Made by a program: the position numbers and the translations under genes. From positions 67,280 to 131,279 of the forward strand of contig JADDKJ010000002.1 in NCBI GenBank assembly GCA_033717875.1: DNA of 64,000 nt, read 5' to 3'. This document shows, piece by piece, positions 1,572-52,037 of the stretch (its first letter is position 1; each line of letters begins with the position of its first letter). This DNA comes from Gammaproteobacteria bacterium (GTDB lineage: Bacteria; Pseudomonadota; Gammaproteobacteria; Ga0077554; Ga007554). The notes below the pieces were generated by a model, which ran no database searches, had not been told where the DNA came from, and saw only the letters and a list, made by a program, of their open reading frames with translations.

Positions 1572-1607
1572 GTTCCGGCCAGCGCGCATATCCCGATGTT
1601 AGGCAAT
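1572..1607 (+). CRISPR. Degenerate or truncated terminal CRISPR repeat (first 27 nt match the array repeat, 3' part diverged)
   Basis: 'gttccggccagcgcgcatatcccgatg' is identical to the array repeat, but the 3' 'ATGTATACT' promoter-like end is replaced. Confidence 0.75.
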
Positions 1608-2336: not shown

Positions 2337-2606
2337 ATGAACATCATCCCCGCCCAGGAAATCAAGCGCCGCGGCATCGCTGCCGTGGACGAGGCACTGG
2401 CCCAAGGCCCCGTGCACATCATTAAGAATAACCGCCCGCAATACGTGGTGCTGACCGAAGAACGTTACAACGAACTGCTTGAAACGCAGGAAGAAGCCGT
2501 CCTCGCCCGCATCAAGGCCTCGCTGGAAGACGCCAAGGCTGGTCGCACCCTTCGGCACAGCAGTGTTGATGCCCTCCTAAAGCACCTGGACAAAACCGCC
2601 GAATGA
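2337..2606 (+). CDS. Phd/YefM-family antitoxin
   Basis: 89 aa with 'VHIIKNNRPQYVVLTEERYNELLE', typical of Phd/YefM. It overlaps the downstream toxin gene by 4 nt. Confidence 0.8.
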   Translation: MNIIPAQEIKRRGIAAVDEALAQGPVHIIKNNRPQYVVLTEERYNELLETQEEAVLARIKASLEDAKAGRTLRHSSVDALLKHLDKTAE

Positions 2607-2881
2607 GCTGGGCGCTCGTCACAACCGCCAGCTTCGACCGTCGCGCCCGCAAGTTCCTGACCAGGCACCCCGACCTGCGTCCCCGTCTCGCCGAGACCCT
2701 GGAAAAACTGCACACCGACCCCTTCGAACCCAGCCTGCGACTGCATCCCCTGACCGGCAAGCTCCAAGGCATACAGGCCGTCAGCCTCACCTACGGCTAT
2801 CGTATCACCCTCACCCTGCGAATCACCGAGCATGAAATCCTCCTGCTCGACATCGGCAGCCATGATGAGGTGTACAGATGA
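2603..2881 (+). CDS. RelE/ParE-family toxin (type II TA mRNA interferase)
   Basis: 92 aa. The motif 'LRLHPLTGKLQG...YRITLTLRITEHEILLLDIGSHDE' matches the RelE/ParE fold consensus. The gene is coupled to the upstream antitoxin. Confidence 0.75.
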   Translation: MSWALVTTASFDRRARKFLTRHPDLRPRLAETLEKLHTDPFEPSLRLHPLTGKLQGIQAVSLTYGYRITLTLRITEHEILLLDIGSHDEVYR

Positions 2882-2910
2882 GTAGACATAGGGGGGGCGT
2901 GATAGGTGAT

Positions 2911-3809
2911 GTTCCGGCCAGCGCGCATATCCCGATGATGTATACTCGTACAATCATAAACAAGTCGCGCTGCGCCGTTCCGGCCAGCGCGCATATCCCG
3001 ATGATGTATACTGACGGAATTGCAGGCCATCAATGCGTTCTAGTTCCGGCCAGCGCGCATATCCCGATGATGTATACTCGGCGTTACGAGTGGCCGGGGT
3101 TTATCGTGTTCCGGCCAGCGCGCATATCCCGATGATGTATACTCGAGGCGGGAACAATATCTATCAAGTCTCGGGTTCCGGCCAGCGCGCATATCCCGAT
3201 GATGTATACTGCTGATGCGATCCACCCGCTGAAACCCGCGCGTTCCGGCCAGCGCGCATATCCCGATGATGTATACTCCTCAATGGCCCACGATACCACG
3301 CGCACGAGTGTTCCGGCCAGCGCGCATATCCCGATGATGTATACTGCAAGAAAATCATCCCCAGCGGATTCGCCGGGGTTCCGGCCAGCGCGCATATCCC
3401 GATGATGTATACTTGGTCAACCCGGTAGCAACACTCAATGCAGGTTCCGGCCAGCGCGCATATCCCGATGATGTATACTAGACCGCGAATTGCCGTCCGA
3501 TCTGGATGGGTTCCGGCCAGCGCGCATATCCCGATGATGTATACTTACTACGCGAGGTTCTTGCAGGTCATTACGGTTCCGGCCAGCGCGCATATCCCGA
3601 TGATGTATACTCCGTGCGATATTCGATGCGCTCCGTAGAGGGTTCCGGCCAGCGCGCATATCCCGATGATGTATACTACACCCATTTTTCTCGATGACAA
3701 TAAGAAGGTTCCGGCCAGCGCGCATATCCCGATGATGTATACTACGATTCGAGCGCGAAGTCGCCAAGGATCCGTTCCGGCCAGCGCGCATATCCCGATG
3801 ATGTATACT
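2911..3809 (+). CRISPR. CRISPR array with 14 direct repeats of 36 bp (GTTCCGGCCAGCGCGCATATCCCGATGATGTATACT) and 13 spacers of 29-32 bp
   Basis: Repeats start at 2911, 2977, 3043, 3108, 3175, 3242, 3310, 3378, 3444, 3510, 3576, 3642, 3708 and 3774. The repeats are identical, the spacers are unique, and the array lies next to cas2-cas1-cas9. Confidence 0.97.
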
Positions 3810-3820
3810 CCGTATAGCAT

Positions 3821-3853
3821 AACCCACTGATTCACCGGTGGGTTTTTGCTTTT
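3821..3853 (+). terminator. Rho-independent terminator downstream of the last repeat (plus strand)
   Basis: Hairpin 'cccac-tgattcaccg-gtggg' followed by 'tttttgctttt'. The U-run is present only on the plus strand. Confidence 0.5.
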
Positions 3854-3879
3854 CTTGCGCCAGGAAACGGCTGCGCGCA

Positions 3880-4206
3880 TCAAAACAATTCAAATTGATC
3901 CGGTGATTTTTTCGCGGGTTGCTTGGCTTTTCCATAGTAGGAAATGATTCGTTCATACTGTTTGTCGGTGAAGGTCAGGATATTGACTTTACCTCCTTCC
4001 GGCAAGGCTTGCTCCACTCGTTTACAGTAGGTATCGATCTGCGCCTGACTGGTGCAGAAGCGCATGTATACTGAGAACTGCGCCATCTCGAATCCCATAT
4101 CCAGGAGTTTGTTGCGAAAGTCCGCCGCGGCTTTGCGCTCTTTCTTTTCCACGACGGGCAGATCGAACATGACGGCCATCCACATTAGGCGATATCCGCT
4201 GAGCAT
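3880..4206 (-). CDS. cas2: CRISPR-associated endoribonuclease Cas2
   Basis: 108 aa with 'MLSGYRLMWMAVMFDLPV', typical of type II Cas2. It sits between the array and cas1. Confidence 0.9.
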   Translation of the reverse strand: MLSGYRLMWMAVMFDLPVVEKKERKAAADFRNKLLDMGFEMAQFSVYMRFCTSQAQIDTYCKRVEQALPEGGKVNILTFTDKQYERIISYYGKAKQPAKKSPDQFELF

Positions 4207-4212
4207 GATGTA

Positions 4213-5142
4213 TCAATCATCAGCCAGATCCGCCGCCATGGACAGCGGGAGCCCCGGCAGTGGGAGATCAACCTTTTCGCGCTCCTTGAGGTACACCTGC
4301 GCCAGCGACACCGCCAGCCGCTGCATACACACCATAACGGGTGTGGCTCCCGAGGTGGTTTGCATGTCGTCGTACAGGCTGCGAACCAGCGTGCGCTTGC
4401 TGTCCGGCGTGATGCTGCTTTCCCCCGATCGTTGCAGCTTCCATACATGCAAATCGACCACGGGGCGAAAAGGTTCCATCAGATCATCAACCAGGCGCAT
4501 GGGGTTGCCTTCATTGGCATGATGCAGCCCCAAAGTGGGGTGGAGGCCGGCGGCGATCACGGCGCGCGCCATGGCGGCACGTAGGACGGTATAACCGTAA
4601 TTGAGCAAGGCATTGACGCCGCCACCGTTCTGGTCACGGCGGAAGTCATCGCCAAACAACAGGTTCCAATAGCGGCGAGCGCCTTGCGCCTCGATATTAT
4701 CAGGGTCGCCGGATCGCACCTTGGCCACAAGCGCCGCAAGCGGCACGAAAGGCGCGCCCGCCGCTTCAAGAGCGGCCGCCTGCTGATGTAGTTTGCTGCG
4801 TACCACCTCCGCCCATAGCCGCTTGTGGGTGGGGCGGGTGGCGGCGAGCTGCGCGTCGAAGCGCTTGGCCTGCTGGAAGTTGCCATCTATGGGCCACAAC
4901 ATACCAATAGCGTTATGGTTGGCAGCGCACAGCACAAAAGGTACGCCGCGCTCGGCCAACGCCACCAACAGGTTGTTGGTATAGCTCAGGCCGTGCGCGT
5001 TGGCGATGACGGCGGCAATGTCATCCAGCGGCACCTGTCCAAGCTCCTTGCGCTCACCTCCTGTGTCTTGCACCACCATGAAGCCACGCGAAGCGAACAA
5101 GTGCCGCCGATCGTCCGCGACCTCGACTATGCGGCCAATCAT
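4213..5142 (-). CDS. cas1: CRISPR-associated integrase Cas1 (type II)
   Basis: 309 aa with Cas1-like sequence throughout. It is adjacent to cas9 and cas2 with 6-nt gaps. Confidence 0.9.
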   Translation of the reverse strand: MIGRIVEVADDRRHLFASRGFMVVQDTGGERKELGQVPLDDIAAVIANAHGLSYTNNLLVALAERGVPFVLCAANHNAIGMLWPIDGNFQQAKRFDAQLAATRPTHKRLWAEVVRSKLHQQAAALEAAGAPFVPLAALVAKVRSGDPDNIEAQGARRYWNLLFGDDFRRDQNGGGVNALLNYGYTVLRAAMARAVIAAGLHPTLGLHHANEGNPMRLVDDLMEPFRPVVDLHVWKLQRSGESSITPDSKRTLVRSLYDDMQTTSGATPVMVCMQRLAVSLAQVYLKEREKVDLPLPGLPLSMAADLADD

Positions 5143-5147
5143 GGTGT

Positions 5148-8100
5148 TTAGCCTTTGAAGCCTGGATCGCGCAGGTCACCAATTTCGGAGACGGTGGTTC
5201 GCCGTCCCCGGGCCTTCTGGAGAGAGCCCGGGTACTTCGATACATACGTGAACGAATCTTCCTTGTCCCGATTTCGGGCGTCCACATTGGCCTCATTGTG
5301 ATCACACATGAATATCTGGCCATTGCCTCCGATCTTGACCACGCGCATGGTCACCGCTTTGCCATCAATGTCGAGTTTAATCATGTCATCGATCATCAAT
5401 CGCATGACCAGCGGTTTGTCCGACTGACTGTACGCCGGATTTCTTAGCCTCTTGAACCCCTCCACCTCTCCGTGCTTGCGAATCAATTGATAGGCTTCAA
5501 ACGTCGAAATCACATCCCCATCCCACTTGCCCTTCTCATTTCGCCAGATTTCGATGCAATAATTGCTGCCACCCACATAGCCTTTGTACGCACGCGGCTG
5601 CCCATCCTCAGCCAGCCCGTGGCGCTGCGGATCATGTGTGCTACTGATGGCGACGAGACTCCTGTTCTTGAACTCGCGCTGACGCGGCCCACCATCTTCC
5701 GGCCTTACTCGCCGAGTTACCACACCATCGCCACGCAAGCCCCAGGCCGTTTTCTCGTGCATGGCACCCTGGTAGCCATGATCCGGCTTATGACTCACGA
5801 TGATATGATTCAATGCCCGCGCAACATGCTCCCGGTAGCTGGGCCATGGCAATGGCATTTCCTCCACCAGCCGGTTGAGCTGATTCTCACGAGCGCTGGC
5901 GCTGGCGTTGGCGAACCGTTGCAGCAAACCCTGATCGGTAATTCCGATGACGGCGGCATCCAGCGCGTGGTGTCGATGGTCGTTACGATTCTTCGCCTCC
6001 GAGCCGGAAAGCAGTTGGTTCAGCCCAAATTTCCCCCGCAGCAGCGCCGTCATGCGGCCAGGAATGGCCCGCACTTTGTTGGGCGGGCAGATCAGTGAAA
6101 GGTATTCCTTGGCAATGCGCGAGAAATAGGCCGTGTCGTTCAGCGCCCTGGCAATAAAGTCTTTGTCTTCCTTGAGCCACCGCTGGTAACCATCCGGCGC
6201 AAAACGTTTGGCCTTTTCTTTGGGCATGAGCGCCGCGCGCTGGAGAATGGCCTCATAGTCGTACTCAGGCGCCAGGCGTTCGCCAAATGCCTCATGAGGT
6301 GTGCGATTGCCCTTGTCGCGATTGGCGCGTCGCAACGATACGGTTTTGTTGTTCAGACTGTCATCCAGCGTCTTTGAATAGGGCAGAATATGCTCTATTT
6401 CCACCTCGCTGGACAGCAGGCGCTCAATACTGATCTGTTCGCCGGTGTAAGGGCATCGGCGATCGGCCACATTCTTTGGATTCAGCTCCACCCAAAGCTG
6501 CATTTTATGGGAAAGTTCGCGGCGCTTGGCGCGGTCAAGATTGGCGGAAACCAATCCGAGTACAGCACAGGCTTCGGTGACCTGCTTGTCATTGAGATCC
6601 TGCCGCTCCTTTTGCTCACGCTGGATATCCAACTTTCTTTCACGGCTCAATTTCAGGTCGCGCGCCACCTCCACAATCACCTCGCTCGGATGGCCGTAGC
6701 GTTTGATCAGCGCGTTCACCACCTTTCGCAATTCATTCAGGCCGATGTGCACCGTGGGATTGGCGATTTTTCCATAGCGCTCTTCATCATTACGCGGATT
6801 ATCCTTGGCAAAGGCGACATGGCGACGTAAGGGAATGCCGTAATAGGGCAGGGAGTCCATGATTTCGCCGGTCTGCTGCGCGTGTGAGAGCTCGCTATGG
6901 CTATCAAACCCGGCACGAGTAACGGCCTCGGAGTAAACAACAACGTCCTTGGCAAGCTCGGGCAGTACCCGTGCCAGGGCGACGCGACTGATGCTGCCAT
7001 ACCCTTCGGGAAGGCCACTGTTGGCTATCCGCTCAGCCGCGGCTTCATCCACTCCGGTGTTCTCTTGTAGCCATTTCACGAGTGCTGACTCGCTGGCTTC
7101 GTTTAACAGCCGATCCACTACGTTATCTTGCAGTATGAGATCAAAGGTGTGCCATTGCTCGCCAAATGCGGTTTCCCTGGAAAGGGCGGCTGACGTGGCG
7201 TTGCCCTTGAGCCGGTCACGCTTGATGTCTTCAAGATTGAATTTGGTTGTGCCTGGCAGGTTCAGCACCTTGAGAATTTTTGTGAACCGGACATCGCCTT
7301 GCCGTTCGAGCAGGTCAACAACCCGATTTCGCTGTTCCAGCGTCAGCTTTTGCTCGCGCAAGTCACGGCTAAGCAATCGCAAGTGATTGACCTCTTGGTA
7401 GATACGAAAACGCTGCGTGCTTGGCAATGCCAGCGGCGCGCGCTCCTCGTCCGGCAGCAGGGTACAACGGCCAGGGCGGACAGGCTTGAGGGGGCGCTGG
7501 TGTAGCAGCACGTCTTTAATCTCGTCGCGCGCCGCATCGTTGAAAAGCACCGGATTCAGGCTGCTCTGTTTGGCCCAAAGTGTGTCGAACTCATGTTCGA
7601 TCATGGCCCGGTCGGCATAGAAGTCGTAGGCCTTGTCCTTCTGTGTTTTGCCGCGCAATCGAGCGCGCACGCTTAATCGCGCCTCATGACGTTTTGCAAG
7701 CCACTCGCCGAGCGTCTGACAGCTTTCCCGAGCCAGCTTCTCGCGCAAATCCCTGATGGCTTTCTTGAGAACGCCGCTGTCGCTGTCTTTTTTATCCGTT
7801 TTGCGGTTGCTTAAGAACCCACGCCGCTGGTTGATGTGAAACAGAGCACGGGCGAATTCAGGACCACTCAGCGCTTCGTACAAACCCTTCTTGCGCAGGG
7901 CATAGGGGTCGAGATTAACCAACGCACGACGCTGGTTTTCGTCTTGAGGAAAAAAGCCCAATTTGGTGAGGGCGGATTGCATTCGCTCTTTGCGCTTGAG
8001 CAACCGGTCTCGGCGACGACGCATCTGGCGTGCATTGCGGCGGGTAACCGCCAATGAGCTGCCGTCCTCCGGATTTCGCCCATCAGAAAAAATGCGTACC

Positions 8101-8213
8101 CCCATGCGAATAATGGCTACGGGTTCATTATTGGCATTCAGACGAATCATGCACCAGCCGACGGATGTTGAACCCATATCCAGAGCCAGCCGGTAATGCA
8201 TTTTGGGTAACAT
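5148..8213 (-). CDS. cas9: Type II-C Cas9 endonuclease (about 1021 aa; the ORF extends to an ATG at 8240, but the SD 'aagga' favours the ATG at 8213)
   Basis: RuvC-I 'YRLALDMGSTSVGW', RuvC-II 'VIVEVARD', HNH 'EIEHILPYS...NNKTV' and RuvC-III 'HHALDAAV' are all present. Its size and the absence of csn2/cas4 indicate subtype II-C. Confidence 0.95.
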   Translation of the reverse strand: MLPKMHYRLALDMGSTSVGWCMIRLNANNEPVAIIRMGVRIFSDGRNPEDGSSLAVTRRNARQMRRRRDRLLKRKERMQSALTKLGFFPQDENQRRALVNLDPYALRKKGLYEALSGPEFARALFHINQRRGFLSNRKTDKKDSDSGVLKKAIRDLREKLARESCQTLGEWLAKRHEARLSVRARLRGKTQKDKAYDFYADRAMIEHEFDTLWAKQSSLNPVLFNDAARDEIKDVLLHQRPLKPVRPGRCTLLPDEERAPLALPSTQRFRIYQEVNHLRLLSRDLREQKLTLEQRNRVVDLLERQGDVRFTKILKVLNLPGTTKFNLEDIKRDRLKGNATSAALSRETAFGEQWHTFDLILQDNVVDRLLNEASESALVKWLQENTGVDEAAAERIANSGLPEGYGSISRVALARVLPELAKDVVVYSEAVTRAGFDSHSELSHAQQTGEIMDSLPYYGIPLRRHVAFAKDNPRNDEERYGKIANPTVHIGLNELRKVVNALIKRYGHPSEVIVEVARDLKLSRERKLDIQREQKERQDLNDKQVTEACAVLGLVSANLDRAKRRELSHKMQLWVELNPKNVADRRCPYTGEQISIERLLSSEVEIEHILPYSKTLDDSLNNKTVSLRRANRDKGNRTPHEAFGERLAPEYDYEAILQRAALMPKEKAKRFAPDGYQRWLKEDKDFIARALNDTAYFSRIAKEYLSLICPPNKVRAIPGRMTALLRGKFGLNQLLSGSEAKNRNDHRHHALDAAVIGITDQGLLQRFANASASARENQLNRLVEEMPLPWPSYREHVARALNHIIVSHKPDHGYQGAMHEKTAWGLRGDGVVTRRVRPEDGGPRQREFKNRSLVAISSTHDPQRHGLAEDGQPRAYKGYVGGSNYCIEIWRNEKGKWDGDVISTFEAYQLIRKHGEVEGFKRLRNPAYSQSDKPLVMRLMIDDMIKLDIDGKAVTMRVVKIGGNGQIFMCDHNEANVDARNRDKEDSFTYVSKYPGSLQKARGRRTTVSEIGDLRDPGFKG

Positions 8214-8261
8214 ATTTTTTTCCTTGAGTTGATTTCCCATTCAATAAAAGTATAGAATAAA

Positions 8262-8351
8262 ATTTGTATACTGCATCGGGATATGCGCTCTGTCCGCTAA
8301 CAAGCTGAAAGATGCACCAAATGAGAGGCCGCTATAAGCGGCCTTTTTCTT
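8262..8351 (+). ncRNA. Candidate tracrRNA (anti-repeat, nexus, terminator hairpin), divergent from cas9
   Basis: 8266-8300 is complementary to the CRISPR repeat, with a 2-nt internal mismatch (bulge) and scattered mismatches. A TTGATT-18-TAGAAT promoter lies upstream at 8229-8258. Hairpin 'ggccgc-tataa-gcggcc' plus TTTTT occupies 8327-8349. Confidence 0.75.
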
Positions 8352-8453
8352 TGGCCCGAATTTATGAAACATTCGGGTTAGGGTACCCCACGTAAATCCC
8401 AGCCATTAAAAAAGCCCCGGAGTTTAACGCTCCGAGGCTTTATTTACGGGTAA

Positions 8454-8591
8454 CTACAATCCCGCGTAGGATGTCACAAATCTGGCGAACAATACGCCGC
8501 AAATAATCACCGTGATAATACCGATAATCGCCGGCGCGATGTCCTTCACCCGGTAAAGCTCATCGACATCCTTCTGCTTGCTTGAATGCAT
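8454..8591 (-). CDS. Small membrane protein (about 45 aa, one C-terminal TM helix), hypothetical
   Basis: SD 'aagggga' precedes the ATG at 8591. A hydrophobic helix 'IAPAIIGIITVIICGVLFA' is present. The longer ORF translates a REP element upstream. Confidence 0.35.
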   Translation of the reverse strand: MHSSKQKDVDELYRVKDIAPAIIGIITVIICGVLFARFVTSYAGL

Positions 8592-8620
8592 AACCATCCC
8601 CTTACAATGAACACTACGGA

Positions 8621-8697
8621 ATCGCAGGGCGCGTCTCACGCACCGCGAGACACCGGGGTACGGACAACGCCATTGCGGTGCGCACGGCGCACCCTAC
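8621..8697. repeat. REP-1 palindromic element (cgcagg-gtgcgtctca ... ggtgcgcacggcgcaccctac)
   Basis: Related copies lie at 23523-23584, 24264-24287, 26163-26204, 42617-42638, 43119-43146 and 61305-61333. All are intergenic or at gene ends. Confidence 0.7.
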
Positions 8698-8831
8698 AAC
8701 TGCCCATGTATCGGAACTTACCACTCAACATGCACGGACCACAAAGCTCCGGTACAGCACTTCCAGTCTAGCAAAAATTCCTGAGATTCCAAGTAGGATT
8801 TTCCTGCCAGAAAGGTTATCGGACGCTTTGT

Positions 8832-11800
8832 TTAATCTTCTTGAAGCTGATCCGGATTTTCGGATGCCAGTAGCGCGGCATTCCCACCCACGGCGGCGGT
8901 GTTGGTGCTGACCACCCGCTCCACGGCAAAGCGCGGCAGCGTATGCGGGCCGCCTGCTTTGGGGCCGGTGCCGGACAGTCCTTCGCCGCCGAAGGGCTGG
9001 ACGCCGACGACGGCGCCGATCATGTTGCGATTGACATAGATATTGCCGACGCGCGCACGGTGTTGGATATGGCGGATGGTTTCTTCGATGCGGCTGTGAA
9101 TGCCGAGCGTCAATCCGTAGCCTGTGTTGTTGATCGCTTCGATCGCCTGATCCAGCTTGTTCGATGAATAGCGGACGATGTGCAGGCAGGGACCGAATAT
9201 CTCGCGCTCGAGACACGTGATGCTGTCGATTTCGAACACGCGCGGGGCGAAGAACGTGCCGTGTTCCGTGCCTGGGGGGAGGACGAGTTCGCGGATGATT
9301 TTTTCCTGGGCTGACATGTGCTGCGCGTGCGTCTCCAGGTTCGCCTTGGCGGCGGCGTCGATCACGGGGCCTATGTCCGTAGACAGTCGCGCGGGGTCAC
9401 CGATGCGCAGCTCGTCCATCGCGCAAGCCAGTGCGCCGATGGCGCGCGATGCTATCTCCTCCTGCACGAACAGCACACGCAACGCCGAACAGCGCTGTCC
9501 GGCGCTGTTGAAGGCGGAGCGGATGGCGTCGCTCACCACCTGCTCGATCAAGGCGGAGCTGTCGGCGATCATCGCATTCTGGCCGCCGGTTTCGGCGATG
9601 AAGGGAACGATGGGACCGGAGCGGGCGGCGAGCGCCTGGTTGATCGCCCGCGCCGTTTCGGTGGAGCCGGTGAAGGCCACGCCGGCGACGCGCGGATCGG
9701 TGACCAGCCTGGCGCCCACCACGTTGCCCCGGCCCGGCAGCAGATGCAGCGCGTCGCCCGGCACACCGGCCTCGTGCAGCAGGCGCACCGCGTGAACGGC
9801 GATCAAGGGTGTCTGGGCGGCGGGCTTGGCGATCACGGCATTGCCTGCGGCGAGGGCGGCGGTGATCTGGCCGATGAAGATGGCGAGAGGAAAATTCCAC
9901 GGGCTGATGCAGGCGAAAACGCCGCGGCCATGCAGGCTGAGCCGGTTGGATTCGCCGGTGGGGCCAGGCAAGGTGCTGGCCGCACCAAAATCGCGCCGCG
10001 CGAGCATGGCATAGTAGCGGCAGTAATCCACCGCCTCGCGCACCTCGGCCAGCGCATCGGGCACGGTCTTGCCACCCTCGCGCACGCACAAGGCGATGAA
10101 CTCCACATGGCGCTGCTCGAACAGATCGGCGGCGCGCCCCAGGATCTGCGCGCGCATTGCGGCGGGCGTGCGGTCCCAGTCGGGCGCAGCGGCGGACGCG
10201 AGCCGGAGCGCCTGTTCCGCCATCGCGGTATCGGCCAATGCCACCGCACCGATCTCACGGCGGCCATCGCTGGGATCATGCACACGTTGGAGCGACCCGG
10301 AAAATTCTTTGCCGCCGACGATGGGGGCAGCTGACCAGCGGCGCGTCAAAGGCTCATGCAGGGCCTGATAGAGATTCTCCACCTCGACGGGATCGGCGAG
10401 ATTGACGCCACGCGCATTGCGGCGCTCCGCGCCGTACAGATCGACGGGCAGCGGCAGGCGCGGATTGGGCTTGTCCGCAAGGGCGTTCAGCTCGTCCACC
10501 GGATCCGCGATCACCTGCTCGACGGGCAACCGCTCATCGACAATGCGATTGACGAAAGAGGTGTTGGCGCCATTCTCCAGCAGCCGCCTCACTAGATAGG
10601 GCAGCAGATCGGTTTCGCCGCCCACCGGCGCATAGACCCGGCAAGCCACGCCGGACCCATCGCTGCCCAGCAACTCGCCATACAGCGCCTCACCCATGCC
10701 GTGCAGGCGCTGGAATTCGAAATTGCGACCCTGCCCGGCAAGTTCCAGGATATAGGCCACGGTATGCGCGTTATGCGTGGCGAACTGCGGATAAAAAGCA
10801 TCCTGCGCCGCGAACAGCCGCCGCGCGCAGGCGAGATACGAAACATCCGTCGCGGCCTTGCGCGTGTATACCGGGTAACCGGCCAGCCCCTGCACCTGGG
10901 CGCGCTTGATCTCGCTGTCCCAGTAAGCGCCTTTCACCAGGCGCAGCGGGATGCGCCGCCCTTCACGGCGGGCCACGGCGGCCAGCCAGTCCAACACAGC
11001 GGGCGCGCGCTTTTGGTAAGCCTGTATGGCAAGACCGAATCCTTCCCAATCCTTGAGGAACGAATCACGGAACACGGCTTCGAAAATATCCAGCGACAGC
11101 TCCAGACGCTCCGCTTCTTCGGCATCCAGGGTGAGAGCGATACCCGCCGCCCTGGCCTGCCGCGCCAGTGCCAGCACCCTGGGCACGAGTTCGTCCAGGA
11201 CGCGCTCGCGCTGGGCAGCTTCGTAACGCGGATGCAATGCGGAAAGTTTCACCGAGATGCTCGGTGCGCTGAACACATCACCCCCTCGATCAGGGTCGGC
11301 CAGGGTATCGATGGCCTGGGAATACGCAGCGAAATAACGCCCGGCATCGCCGGCGCACAGCGCCGCCTCGCCGAGCATGTCGAAGGAATAACGATAACCT
11401 CGGCCACCTTCGGACTGGGTGCGCTGGAGTGCCTGCGTTATGGTTGAGCCCATCACGAACTGCTGCGCCAGAATATGCATCGCCTGCTTTAGCGCCAGAC
11501 GAATCAATGGCACACCGCTTCTCACCGCCAAGCGCTCCAATACGACGGATATGCGCTGTGGCGTGACCGTTTCGAACTTGACGACGCGCCCGGTCAGCAT
11601 CAGACCCCACGTCGCGGCATTGACCAGCAGGGAATGGCCGTGGCCCAGATGCGCATCCCATTGCCCTTGGGAGAACTTGTCGCGGATCAGCCGGTCGGCG
11701 GTCTCGGCATCGGGAATGCGCAGCAGCGCCTCGGCCAGGCACATCAGGATCACGCCTTCTTCGGAAGAAAGATCGTACTCGCGCAGAAAGGCATCGAGCC

Positions 11801-36756: not shown

Positions 36757-38217
36757 TTACTTCTTCTTGCCGGCCTTCTTGGCGACAACCTTCTTCTTGG
36801 GCGCCACCTTGACCTTGGCGGCAGGCGCGGCTTTCTTCACCGCTGCCTTCTTGAGCGCGGCCTTGGGCATCGCCTTCTTCATCGCCCCTTTCTTGGGTGC
36901 GGCTTTTGCTATTGCTTTTTTCGCAATCGCCTTCTTCGGAGCAACCTTCTTGGCGGGTGCCTTCTTGGCGATCATCTTCTTGACGGGCGCCTTCTTCGCC
37001 GCCGTCTTCTTTGCTACCGCCTTCTTCGCTACCGCTTTTTTCGCCGGGGCTTTCTTGGCCGGAGCCTTCTTCGCCACCGCCTTCTTCAAGGTAGCAGCCA
37101 ATGCCTTGGCGGTCTTGGCCACTTTCTTCTGCGCGAACTTCGCTGTCTTGGCGACGGCCTTGGCCTCTTTCTTGACTGTGGCGGCGGCCTTGGTGGCGGC
37201 CTTGACGACTTTCTTCTCGACCTTCACGGCAGCCTTCTTGACGACAACGGCTTCCTTCTTGGCCACGGCGACAGCCTTGGCAGCGGCTTTGACCACTTTC
37301 TTCTCGGCCTTCACCACAGCCTTCTTAGCGACGACAACCTCTTTCCTGGCGGTGGCAACCGCTTTGGTGGCGGCGGCAGCGGCCTTTTTCTCAACATTCT
37401 GGACAGCTTTCACAGCGGCTTTAACCTCTTTTTTGACAGTGGCAACAACTTCCCTGGCGGCAGGAGCCGCTTTCTTCTCCGGGGCTTTTTGGGGCGCCGC
37501 CGCGGGAGCAACCGCCGGTTTCTTCACGGCAGGCTTGGCGGCAACAGCGGGTTTCGGCACCGGCGCGGGCATCGGCTCGCTGATGATTTTTTGGATCGCG
37601 GCGAAGATGTCCTTGATTTCCCCCACGCCCTGCACGGTGCACAGCTTGCCCTGATTACGGTAGTACGCCACCACCGGGGCGGTCTGGGCCTCATAAACCC
37701 GCAGACGGTTGCTGATGGTCTCCTCGTTGTCATCGGCGCGGTGACGCAGATTGCCGCCGCATTTGTCGCAGCGTTCGTCGAGCTTGGAGGGAGAAGTGTA
37801 GATGTTATAGGTCTGCCCGCAGGATTCGCAGGTGCGGCGCCCCGTGAGGCGCTGCAACAGAATCTCGAAATCGACGTCAATCAGCAGCCCGATCTCCAGC
37901 GGCTGCCGGACCTTTTCCAGCATGGCATCCAATGCCTCGGCCTGCGGAATGTTGCGCGGAAAACCATCGAGGATGAATCCTTTCTTGGCATCGGGCTGTC
38001 CCAGCCGTTCCTCGATCATGCCCAGGACGATCTCATCCGACACCAGTTGTCCGGCATCCATCGCGGCCTTGGCTTGCAACCCCAGCGGCGTTCCCGCCGC
38101 CACCGCGGCGCGCAACAGATCGCCGGTGGAGATTTGCGGAATATGATGTTTTTCGACGAGCAGCTTGGCTTGCGTGCCTTTTCCCGAACCAGGCGCTCCT
38201 AAAAGTACAATTCTCAT
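36757..38217 (-). CDS. adk: Adenylate kinase (with zinc-binding LID) fused to a ~270-aa Lys/Ala-rich histone H1-like C-terminal tail
   Basis: The N-terminal 215 aa are canonical Adk (P-loop 'GAPGSGKGTQ', LID 'CESCGQTY...CDKCGG'). The same frame then continues without a stop through 'PAVAAKPAVKKPAVA...' and tandem KKAVVKAEKKVVKAA and AKKAPAKKA repeats to 'KKAGKKK'. Confidence 0.75.
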   Translation of the reverse strand: MRIVLLGAPGSGKGTQAKLLVEKHHIPQISTGDLLRAAVAAGTPLGLQAKAAMDAGQLVSDEIVLGMIEERLGQPDAKKGFILDGFPRNIPQAEALDAMLEKVRQPLEIGLLIDVDFEILLQRLTGRRTCESCGQTYNIYTSPSKLDERCDKCGGNLRHRADDNEETISNRLRVYEAQTAPVVAYYRNQGKLCTVQGVGEIKDIFAAIQKIISEPMPAPVPKPAVAAKPAVKKPAVAPAAAPQKAPEKKAAPAAREVVATVKKEVKAAVKAVQNVEKKAAAAATKAVATARKEVVVAKKAVVKAEKKVVKAAAKAVAVAKKEAVVVKKAAVKVEKKVVKAATKAAATVKKEAKAVAKTAKFAQKKVAKTAKALAATLKKAVAKKAPAKKAPAKKAVAKKAVAKKTAAKKAPVKKMIAKKAPAKKVAPKKAIAKKAIAKAAPKKGAMKKAMPKAALKKAAVKKAAPAAKVKVAPKKKVVAKKAGKKK

Positions 38218-51600: not shown

Positions 51601-51989
51601 TTTCCAGCAGTATGGAATATAACTTTGAACGGATCGAAAGAGATGCGAATTTTACAACGGGAAATTTATTGGACCTAAAGACACACAAGCTGCCTTTGGC
51701 CATCAATCTGTTTTCCCCATCCGGGCTCACTATGCAATTCAAGGCAACCTACTTCAATCAAGCGGGGGATTTTTTTGATCCCGCATCCTCACTCGTCACA
51801 TACGGGAGCGATCAATTCTGGCTTGCGAACTTCAATGCAAGCTATCGGCTACCCAAGCGTTATGGAATCATTTCGGCAGGAGTCAACAATTTATTCAACA
51901 AACGATTCAGCTTTCAGGATACCGATCCGGCGACCCCACGCGTGAGTCCGCAACGATTGATCTTTCTCAAGTTCACACTCACGTTTTAG
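48606..51989 (+). CDS. Secreted FecR-domain / TPR-repeat protein with a ~450-aa C-terminal beta-barrel-like domain (outer-membrane type)
   Basis: A signal peptide is followed by a FecR block 'LRIDQRSAITFP...VDGTEFLVAT', then at least 8 TPR-like repeats. A C-terminal region rich in alternating aromatic/Gly strands ends 'LIFLKFTLTF' (terminal Phe). Confidence 0.7.
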   Translation: MQQAVARKNKQRLILPVAFLAMISPTPGHTAPDECADWVARAVSMEGNVEGHSGMDPVWQPVRPNQVFCPGSAIRTGPRSRAALLLRNQSVLRIDQRSAITFPAAESETPFWLRMLNGAVNVITRTPKKFQIDTPFVNAAVDGTEFLVATTENEATVSVFEGQVSATNPQGQRVLKSGESASASPGQAPVPHILARPRDAVQWALYYPPVLTFRREDFREGDENAWQGRVRRSIAAYRESRLSDALEIIAQTPQDNPGASFFTWRAALLLETGRSDEAGTDLQTALGLDPNHGPAYAQQAIIAVTQNRRNEALEQARRATTLTPQNAASWIALSYAEQASFNLQAALDAAQQAIEKEPGNALAWARLAELRLSLADLDGALAAAEKAAALDPNLARTHSVLGFVRLAQINTRDARLSFEHAIALVPSDPLPRLGLGLAKIRNGELAAGREDIEIATALDPNNALVRSYMGKAYYEEKRASLAASQFDIAKALDPNDPTPWFYDAILKQSVNRPVEALQDLQKSIELNDNRAVYRSRLLLDSDAAARSASQARIYSDLGFQQLAMVEGWKSLNTDPANHSAHRFLADSYAGIPRHEIARVSELLQAQLLQPLNINPIQPQLAESNLGILDGAGPSRAGFNEFNPLFARDRVGFQVNGIGGGNNTLGNDLVISGTQGKLSYSIGQFHYQTDGFRKNNDIKQDLYTLFVQGALSHKTSVQAEFRSSDRENGDLALRFSPDNFSAALRENTNTETSRLGFRHAFSPSSDLIGSIIFQNSDSDNHDTNPFLSITSARKDQGYIGEIQHLFRSMRFNLVSGIGHYSLERKTVITTDFGIPFIPKATSSKTGDVERGNAYFYSRTNVLENMTFALGISADKYQGTFMDKNQINPKLGLIWNISPATTVRAAAFRVLKRDLITNQTLEPTQVAGFNQFFDDINGTDSKRYGVALDQQLTHSSYSGIELSRRDMSVPYNNPFSGETLTAKWKENIGRFYLYWSPQPWLSSSMEYNFERIERDANFTTGNLLDLKTHKLPLAINLFSPSGLTMQFKATYFNQAGDFFDPASSLVTYGSDQFWLANFNASYRLPKRYGIISAGVNNLFNKRFSFQDTDPATPRVSPQRLIFLKFTLTF

Positions 51990-52037
51990 GTTTTCAGACA
52001 GCCCCCGAGTCAACCAGCCGCAAATGGAGACACCACA

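Follow-up and report, generated by a model that had tools for sequence, protein, structure and literature searches.

A predicted tracrRNA gene divergent from cas9 in a type II-C CRISPR-Cas9 locus of an uncultured betaproteobacterium

On the evidence of sequence comparison, the plus strand at 8265-8348 of the 64-kb stretch of DNA analysed here (hereafter the window) very probably carries a tracrRNA gene, coding for the small RNA on which Cas9 depends, and belongs to a type II-C CRISPR-Cas9 system. An initial annotation had put this element forward as the third part missing from a functional II-C system, and conservation in related genomes, covariation between repeat and anti-repeat and a covariance model all agree with that proposal. 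The predicted transcript measures about 84 nt, with a near-invariant 28-nt tail, a nexus-like hairpin of 2 bp and a single terminator hairpin (Table 1).

The CRISPR-Cas locus and its array

The locus is an ordinary type II-C CRISPR-Cas9 system of an uncultured betaproteobacterium. Its operon reads cas9, then cas1, then cas2, all on the minus strand. Neither csn2 nor cas4 was found, and no extra cas ORF was detected in the DNA ahead of cas9 or in the gap that separates cas2 from the array; it is by the joint absence of csn2 and cas4 that the locus was assigned to type II-C. The cas9 ORF as listed begins at 8240 and is longer than the annotated form. Since the 1021-aa Cas9 is 100% identical to the NCBI-annotated Cas9 of a MAG labelled Gammaproteobacteria, and since related Cas9 proteins measure 1017-1021 aa, the ATG at 8213 was regarded as the true start of cas9. 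The nearest solved Cas9 structures are of the Neisseria type (e.g., 6JDQ, E 1.8e-57).

Table 1. Coordinates of the CRISPR-Cas features in the window (position 1 is its first nucleotide).
Feature	Position	Strand	Remarks
Truncated orphan repeat, 27 nt	1572-1598	+	equals first 27 nt of repeat
CRISPR array, 14 identical 36-nt repeats	2911-3809	+ (presumed crRNA sense)	
Terminator-like hairpin, AACCCACTG...CGGTGGGTT and T run	3821-3844	+	
cas2	3880-4206	-	TIGR01573, 61.9 bits
cas1, type II NMENI subtype	4213-5142	-	TIGR03639, 238 bits
cas9, 1021 aa	5148-8213	-	TIGR01865, 631.6 bits
Predicted sigma-70 promoter	8229-8258	+	-35 TTGATT 8229-8234, 18-nt spacer, -10 TAGAAT 8253-8258
Predicted tracrRNA, about 84 nt	8265-8348	+	5' end from promoter (plus or minus 2 nt), 3' end from T run
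Anti-repeat	8265-8301	+	pairs with repeat positions 1-35
Tail segment AAGCUGAAAGAUGCACCAAAUG with nexus-like mini-hairpin	8302-8322	+	near-invariant in clade
Rho-independent terminator	8323-8348	+	z = -3.6; compensatory changes

Upstream of cas9, past the flagged interval, a strong terminator is followed by putA. This terminator hairpin (8405-8440) lies downstream of putA and of a small ORF (8454-8639, minus strand), which may code for a membrane protein, and its sub-threshold match to His_leader in Rfam was taken as terminator-driven. The start codon of cas9 and the predicted start of the tracrRNA are separated by 52 nt (8214-8264), within which no good match to a minus-strand sigma-70 site for cas9 was detected. 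A possible -10 box for cas9, TATACT (8254 to 8249, minus strand), overlaps the -10 box of the tracrRNA, and the promoters of cas9 and tracrRNA may therefore overlap back to back. Elsewhere in the window, at 36825-37378, several tandem repeats (periods of 15, 30, 45 and 87 nt; e.g., CCTTCTTGGCGGGCG) overlap one another, and the opposite strand may there code for a repetitive Ala/Lys-rich protein.

The array comprises 13 spacers of 29-32 nt between repeats that read GTTCCGGCCAGCGCGCATATCCCGATGATGTATACT on the plus strand. It is probably transcribed on this strand, opposite to the cas operon, as judged from the strand of the tracrRNA, the GTT... at the start of the repeat and the TAnnnT at the repeat 3' end. 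This -10-like TAnnnT occurs in all 27 loci compared, and in 17 of the 27 it is lengthened to TGnTAnnnT, the form of the Neisseria repeat; the repeat of the window ends in TATACT, immediately abutted by TG. The terminator-like hairpin in Table 1 follows the last repeat at a distance of 11 nt, ahead of the cas2 stop codon, and could stop transcripts from the promoter of the last repeat and, from the other side, those of the cas operon.

The truncated orphan repeat is the sole other repeat-like sequence in the 64-kb window and is oriented like the array. Type II-C systems insert new spacers at the repeat that is transcribed last (PMC12080349); spacer entry would here be at the cas2-side end, and the orphan repeat therefore sits beyond the old array end, at a distance of 1.3 kb. 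The DNA between both (1667-2881) harbours a DUF4160/DUF2442 pair and a pair of a Phd/YefM antitoxin and a YafQ-like toxin. The orphan repeat is probably not a tracrRNA gene, and rather a relic of the old array end which was severed by inserted small cassettes.

Protospacers were sought as a check, via a PAM, on the direction of the array, and none was found: a BLAST search with the entire array returned no phage or plasmid match with E below 0.3, and the 22-23 PAM-proximal bases of the three newest spacers had 0 exact matches in IMG/VR. A weak match of the array (66.8% over 227 nt) was observed at 51791-52017 of a Limnohabitans sp. TEGF004 plasmid (NZ_AP027057.1), which suggests that this plasmid carries a related CRISPR array.

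Anatomy of the predicted tracrRNA gene

The anti-repeat reads TGTATACTGCATCGGGATATGCGCTCTGTCCGCTAAC on the plus strand and lies 52 nt from cas9. The initial annotation had placed it at 8266-8300, within one base of the extent found here, and its claim of 15 contiguous matches corresponds to the perfect 15-mer CATCGGGATATGCGC at 8274-8288, opposite repeat positions 13-27. Altogether 30 of 35 positions of repeat and anti-repeat are paired; those unpaired are 4, 8, 12 and 28-29, and position 36 is unpaired as well. From the spacer-proximal side, the duplex begins with a GUU-AAC stem and a 1x2 loop, in which repeat C4 lies opposite CU, followed by a second stem (CGG with CCG) with a C-U mismatch at position 8 and a third (CAG with CUG) with a C-U mismatch at position 12. 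The distal duplex consists of the perfect stem of 15 bp, a 2x2 loop at 28-29 and 6 further pairs. When repeat and tracrRNA were paired in silico, as the initial annotation had suggested, the duplex extended over repeat positions 1-35, and a fusion of sgRNA style (repeat positions 1-24, GAAA and tracrRNA) folded as intended (-53.1 kcal/mol, z = -6.8).

A 32-nt degenerate pattern composed of the matched positions, with 3 mismatches allowed, matched the 14 repeats and the anti-repeat alone, and shuffled sequences gave 0 matches. The duplex energy of the anti-repeat amounts to -46.8 kcal/mol as against chance values down to -41 in this GC-rich window, where energy as a lone detector discriminates poorly and constitutes weak evidence; sequence matches and covariation were therefore relied on.

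The irregularities of the duplex are not equally conserved. The initial annotation had regarded the mismatches at repeat positions 28-29 as the classic bulge, a claim which did not hold: the interruption is specific to this locus, with position 28 paired in 22 and position 29 in 20 of 27 loci, and pairing across the 27 loci declines only past about position 31. By comparison with relatives, the conserved irregularities are spacer-proximal, at positions 4 and 7/8 of the repeat. In 27 of 27 loci C4 faces two bases (CU), and there is a single mismatch either at position 7 (G-A; 19 loci) or, as in the window, at position 8 (8 loci). Only the window shows the C-U mismatch at position 12, its repeat having CAGCGC where almost all relatives have CAGAGC. 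In the published Neisseria sgRNA only the first 24 bases of the repeat are used, so that 28-29 lies outside, and its irregular region comes after a spacer-proximal stem of 8 bp (PMC9674691).

The sequence which the initial annotation had called a plausible sigma-70 promoter is present at the site given in Table 1. It matches the consensus at 9 of 12 positions, a match that taken alone is not above chance (6 such sites in 6.5 kb versus 4.8 expected). Its position is kept in 31 of 31 loci (30 relatives and the window), where it takes the form TTGAC or TTGAT, a spacer of 17-19 nt (17 or 18 in all except one) and usually TAnnAT, and where the end of the -10 box precedes the anti-repeat by 3-7 nt.

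The GC hairpin with a U5 terminator, previously claimed at 8327-8349, was recovered with hairpin and T5 at 8327-8348. A short nexus-like region ahead of it had also been claimed. The predicted nexus-like mini-hairpin begins 2 nt after the duplex and consists of two Watson-Crick pairs (GC at 8304-8305 with GC at 8314-8315). Its columns never vary in the alignment and hence provide no covariation for or against pairing; an insertion of 16 nt in one relative (L003) falls within its loop and is compatible with the hairpin. The core of the terminator, GGCCGC-TATAA-GCGGCC, pairs 8327-8332 with 8338-8343 ahead of T5 at 8344-8348, and flanking A-U and G-U pairs lengthen the stem to 8323-8333 with 8337-8347. 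The tail folds with -18.8 kcal/mol (z = -3.6), and at three pairs in the base of the terminator stem the 33 sequences compared differ by compensatory changes (AU/GC/GU, GC/AU and GC/AU). A simple terminator scanner missed this hairpin; folding and the covariance model recovered it.

In an Rfam search of 2500-9000 with E up to 10, no family reached the threshold and none of the matches was tracrRNA-like, the best of them (His_leader, SraB and ctRNA) being weak and terminator-driven. Such a result was to be expected, since tracrRNAs are too diverse for one model (PMC3737331). A search for the tail sequence found no paper in the literature collection covered.

Conservation, covariation and copies apart from cas9

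A search with Cas9, restricted to one genome per species, yielded 33 loci from betaproteobacterial MAGs and isolates with Cas9 identities of 56-82%, among them Gallionellaceae, Nitrosomonas, Sideroxydans, Aquabacterium, Polaromonas, Undibacterium and Candidatus Methylopumilus. All 32 related loci that contain the cas9 start possess the same element in the same position and orientation, and the location divergent from cas9, as initially claimed, is thus borne out beyond the window. The shared element is composed of an anti-repeat, the near-invariant GCTAACAAGCTGAAAGATGCACCAAATG, a GCCGC...GCGGC hairpin and a T run, and 26 of these loci also have an array beyond cas2, with the relative orientation seen in the window. 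As the DNA past the T run is unrelated between loci, the hairpin is to be assigned to the element, not to an adjacent gene. Within the conserved block the relatives differ by indels of 1, 2, 15 and 16 nt, which speaks against a coding region. A literature search for characterised Cas9 orthologues from the genera of the relatives returned nothing relevant.

Two of the relatives show length variants of their own. In the tracrRNA of L019 (5826-5924, minus strand) a tandem duplication of 15 nt, CTGAACGCTAACAAG, is located where anti-repeat and tail meet, and that of L003 (2286-2384, minus strand) carries its 16-nt insertion as an extra small hairpin within the nexus loop.

For the covariation test the repeat of each locus was joined to its own anti-repeat, giving 25 distinct rows. 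Standard pairs occupied 93.7% of the cells, compared with 33-37% when the register was slid by 1-3 columns, and changes on both sides were found in 9 pairs and 52 cells, for instance at positions 15 (GC/AU/UA), 18 (AU/UA), 24 (AU/GC) and 27 (CG/AU/GC). The observed covariation score was matched by none of 500 shuffles. At the level of the sequences compared, the anti-repeat is shown to co-evolve with the repeat of its own locus; since anti-repeats resemble repeats by descent, part of this covariation could reflect gene conversion instead of selection for pairing.

A covariance model, built from 30 relatives with the window left out, matched the window at 8265-8352 (plus strand) with 96.4 bits (E 1.1e-22). 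Its runner-up, with 24 bits, was the same palindromic hairpin on the other strand, and array repeats and orphan repeat reached about 13 and 11.5 bits, respectively.

Metagenome contigs were scanned with the tail motif alone, cas9 being ignored; at least 120 stretches matched, and 80 listed loci were analysed. Among the matches listed, a divergent cas9 start was present in 61 of the 67 loci whose sequence extends 400 nt or more upstream of the anti-repeat, and the distance from cas9 start to anti-repeat was usually 40-120 nt.

The other six of these 67 listed loci (L045, L058, L060, L075, L079 and L109) display tail and terminator without an adjacent cas9, and the anti-repeat is truncated in three of them. 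L109 is accompanied by an IS3-like transposase, L060 by addiction-module genes and only the first few codons of cas9, and L075 by housekeeping genes. All six are probably relics of lost cas9 loci. A further copy (L154, 1-140) was observed on a viral contig of 29,973 nt (IMGVR_UViG_3300037322_000599), where a tracrRNA-like gene is situated 54-140 nt from the end, neighboured by lysozyme and tail-fibre-like genes; the gene comprises the anti-repeat GATTGAGATATGCGCTCTGAACGCTAAC, the invariant tail and a terminator. The contig stops about where cas9 would begin, and it could stem from a prophage that borders on a cas9 locus or from a phage that itself carries a tracrRNA or Cas9 system.

Alternative readings, known systems and implications

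Two alternatives would deny the element its role as tracrRNA in favour of a repeat. The anti-repeat could be a decayed orphan repeat next to an unrelated terminator, without any functional small RNA, and such debris has parallels in the truncated repeat at 1572-1598 of the same locus and in the tail relics that lack cas9 in metagenomes (6 of 67 among the matches listed). This is nevertheless very unlikely, for tail, hairpin and promoter position are conserved down to 56% Cas9 identity, the anti-repeat follows the changes of the local repeat, the hairpin has compensatory changes, and with unrelated DNA past the T run it travels with cas9 and not with a neighbour gene. The truncated repeat itself, if transcribed from the minus strand, would offer a perfect 27-nt anti-repeat and, leaving the array aside, the most favourable raw duplex energy (-61.7 versus -46.8 kcal/mol). 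That it is the real tracrRNA has hardly any probability, however: it points the same way as the repeats of the array, and an RNA continuing from it on the minus strand would enter the 3' end of an elyC-like gene in antisense, has neither nexus nor terminator and folds worse than shuffled sequence (z = +3.0). With the covariance model the truncated repeat scores 11.5 bits as against 96.4, and the conserved element of the relatives always stands beside cas9. No anti-repeat in the 64-kb window was thus preferred to the one at 8265-8301, where the initial annotation had seen a better anti-repeat elsewhere in the genome as refuting its proposal.

The remaining two readings would assign the interval to cas9 or to a protein. 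It could mainly be a regulatory region of cas9, either as promoter or 5' leader or as a long-form natural single guide that represses cas9, given that the cas9 ATG at 8213 is just 52 nt from the predicted tracrRNA start and that a preprint (bioRxiv 10.64898/2026.06.01.729453) describes autoregulation by long-form tracrRNA in other Cas9 systems. Yet from a conserved promoter that ends 3-7 nt ahead of the anti-repeat only a short form is to be expected, and the long-form tracrRNA or natural sgRNA was rejected, since a repeat-like segment that could fold into it is absent upstream of the anti-repeat; the regulatory role, which we consider highly improbable as the main function, would moreover add to the function as tracrRNA and not replace it. 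As for a small protein, two ORFs exist mechanically (8241-8372, minus strand, 43 aa; 8312-8395, plus strand, 27 aa). They were rejected on the pattern of indels (1, 2 and 16 nt inside the conserved block), and conservation tracks base pairing, not codon positions, which leaves this explanation next to no likelihood.

If the element is the tracrRNA, the system would presumably work as follows. The array would be read from the plus strand, largely from the -10-like boxes inside the repeats, as precedents in Neisseria and Campylobacter suggest, and crRNAs would start inside spacers and end in the next repeat. The tracrRNA of about 84 nt, expressed from its own sigma-70 promoter, would pair with the repeat part of each crRNA in a duplex of three spacer-proximal stems of 3 bp, interrupted by the 1x2 loop at 4 and the mismatches at 8 and 12, and then the 15-bp stem. 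Cas9 would bind this duplex together with tail and terminator hairpin, the distal duplex possibly being trimmed by RNase III, and the complex would cleave DNA matching the spacer beside a PAM.

In Campylobacter the tracrRNA adjoins the array instead of being placed upstream of cas9. Otherwise Campylobacter jejuni resembles the window in having a minimal II-C system and, as predicted for the window, an array transcribed opposite to the cas operon, an arrangement of transcription which it shares with Neisseria, and in types II-A and II-C anti-repeats mostly occur upstream of cas9 (PMC3737331). Neisseria repeats carry their own promoters (PMC12080349), and the same is stated of Campylobacter by that source, which cites Dugar et al. 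Neisseria meningitidis is close to the window in several respects: its II-C system consists of cas9, cas1 and cas2 only, its array, as is predicted for that of the window, opposes the cas operon and has a -10 box at the repeat 3' end (PMC3737331; PMC12080349), and its duplex is irregular near the spacer. Both tails begin AAG...CUGAAA(A)GAUG...CC...AA (Nme sgRNA from PMC9674691), a weak similarity, with 54 of 2000 shuffles scoring as well. The tail of Neisseria is longer, whereas in the window the first stem-loop has 2 GC pairs and one terminator hairpin follows the nexus-like region; the predicted transcript has about 84 nt as compared to about 110 nt in the main Nme primary form (PMC3737331), and Cas9 1021 aa as compared to about 1082 aa. 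The tracrRNA of the Streptococcus pyogenes II-A system is built from the same modules of anti-repeat, nexus and terminal hairpins (names after bioRxiv 10.1101/2020.09.02.279885) and its gene likewise lies upstream of cas9. In contrast to the window, S. pyogenes belongs to subtype II-A, possesses csn2 and has a leader-driven array on the cas strand, and the window shows no sign of a long-form tracrRNA.

That the window provides the type example of an undescribed compact betaproteobacterial II-C tracrRNA family, and that in addition the detached copies act as decoys or hijackers of Cas9, is improbable when both are taken together; on this reading the copies detached from cas9, including that on the viral contig, could be more than debris. 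The general understanding of type II systems is left unchanged, and the annotation is correct but unsurprising. It completes the annotation of a CRISPR-Cas9 locus in a kind of MAG in which tracrRNA genes go unannotated, and the orientation of the tracrRNA would set the transcribed strand of the array. For the compact Cas9 of 1021 aa a guide scaffold of about 100 nt is predicted, and an engineered guide should keep the irregularities at repeat positions 4 and 7/8 and not the loop at 28-29. The Cas9 clade to which this would apply is widespread in freshwater and groundwater Betaproteobacteria.
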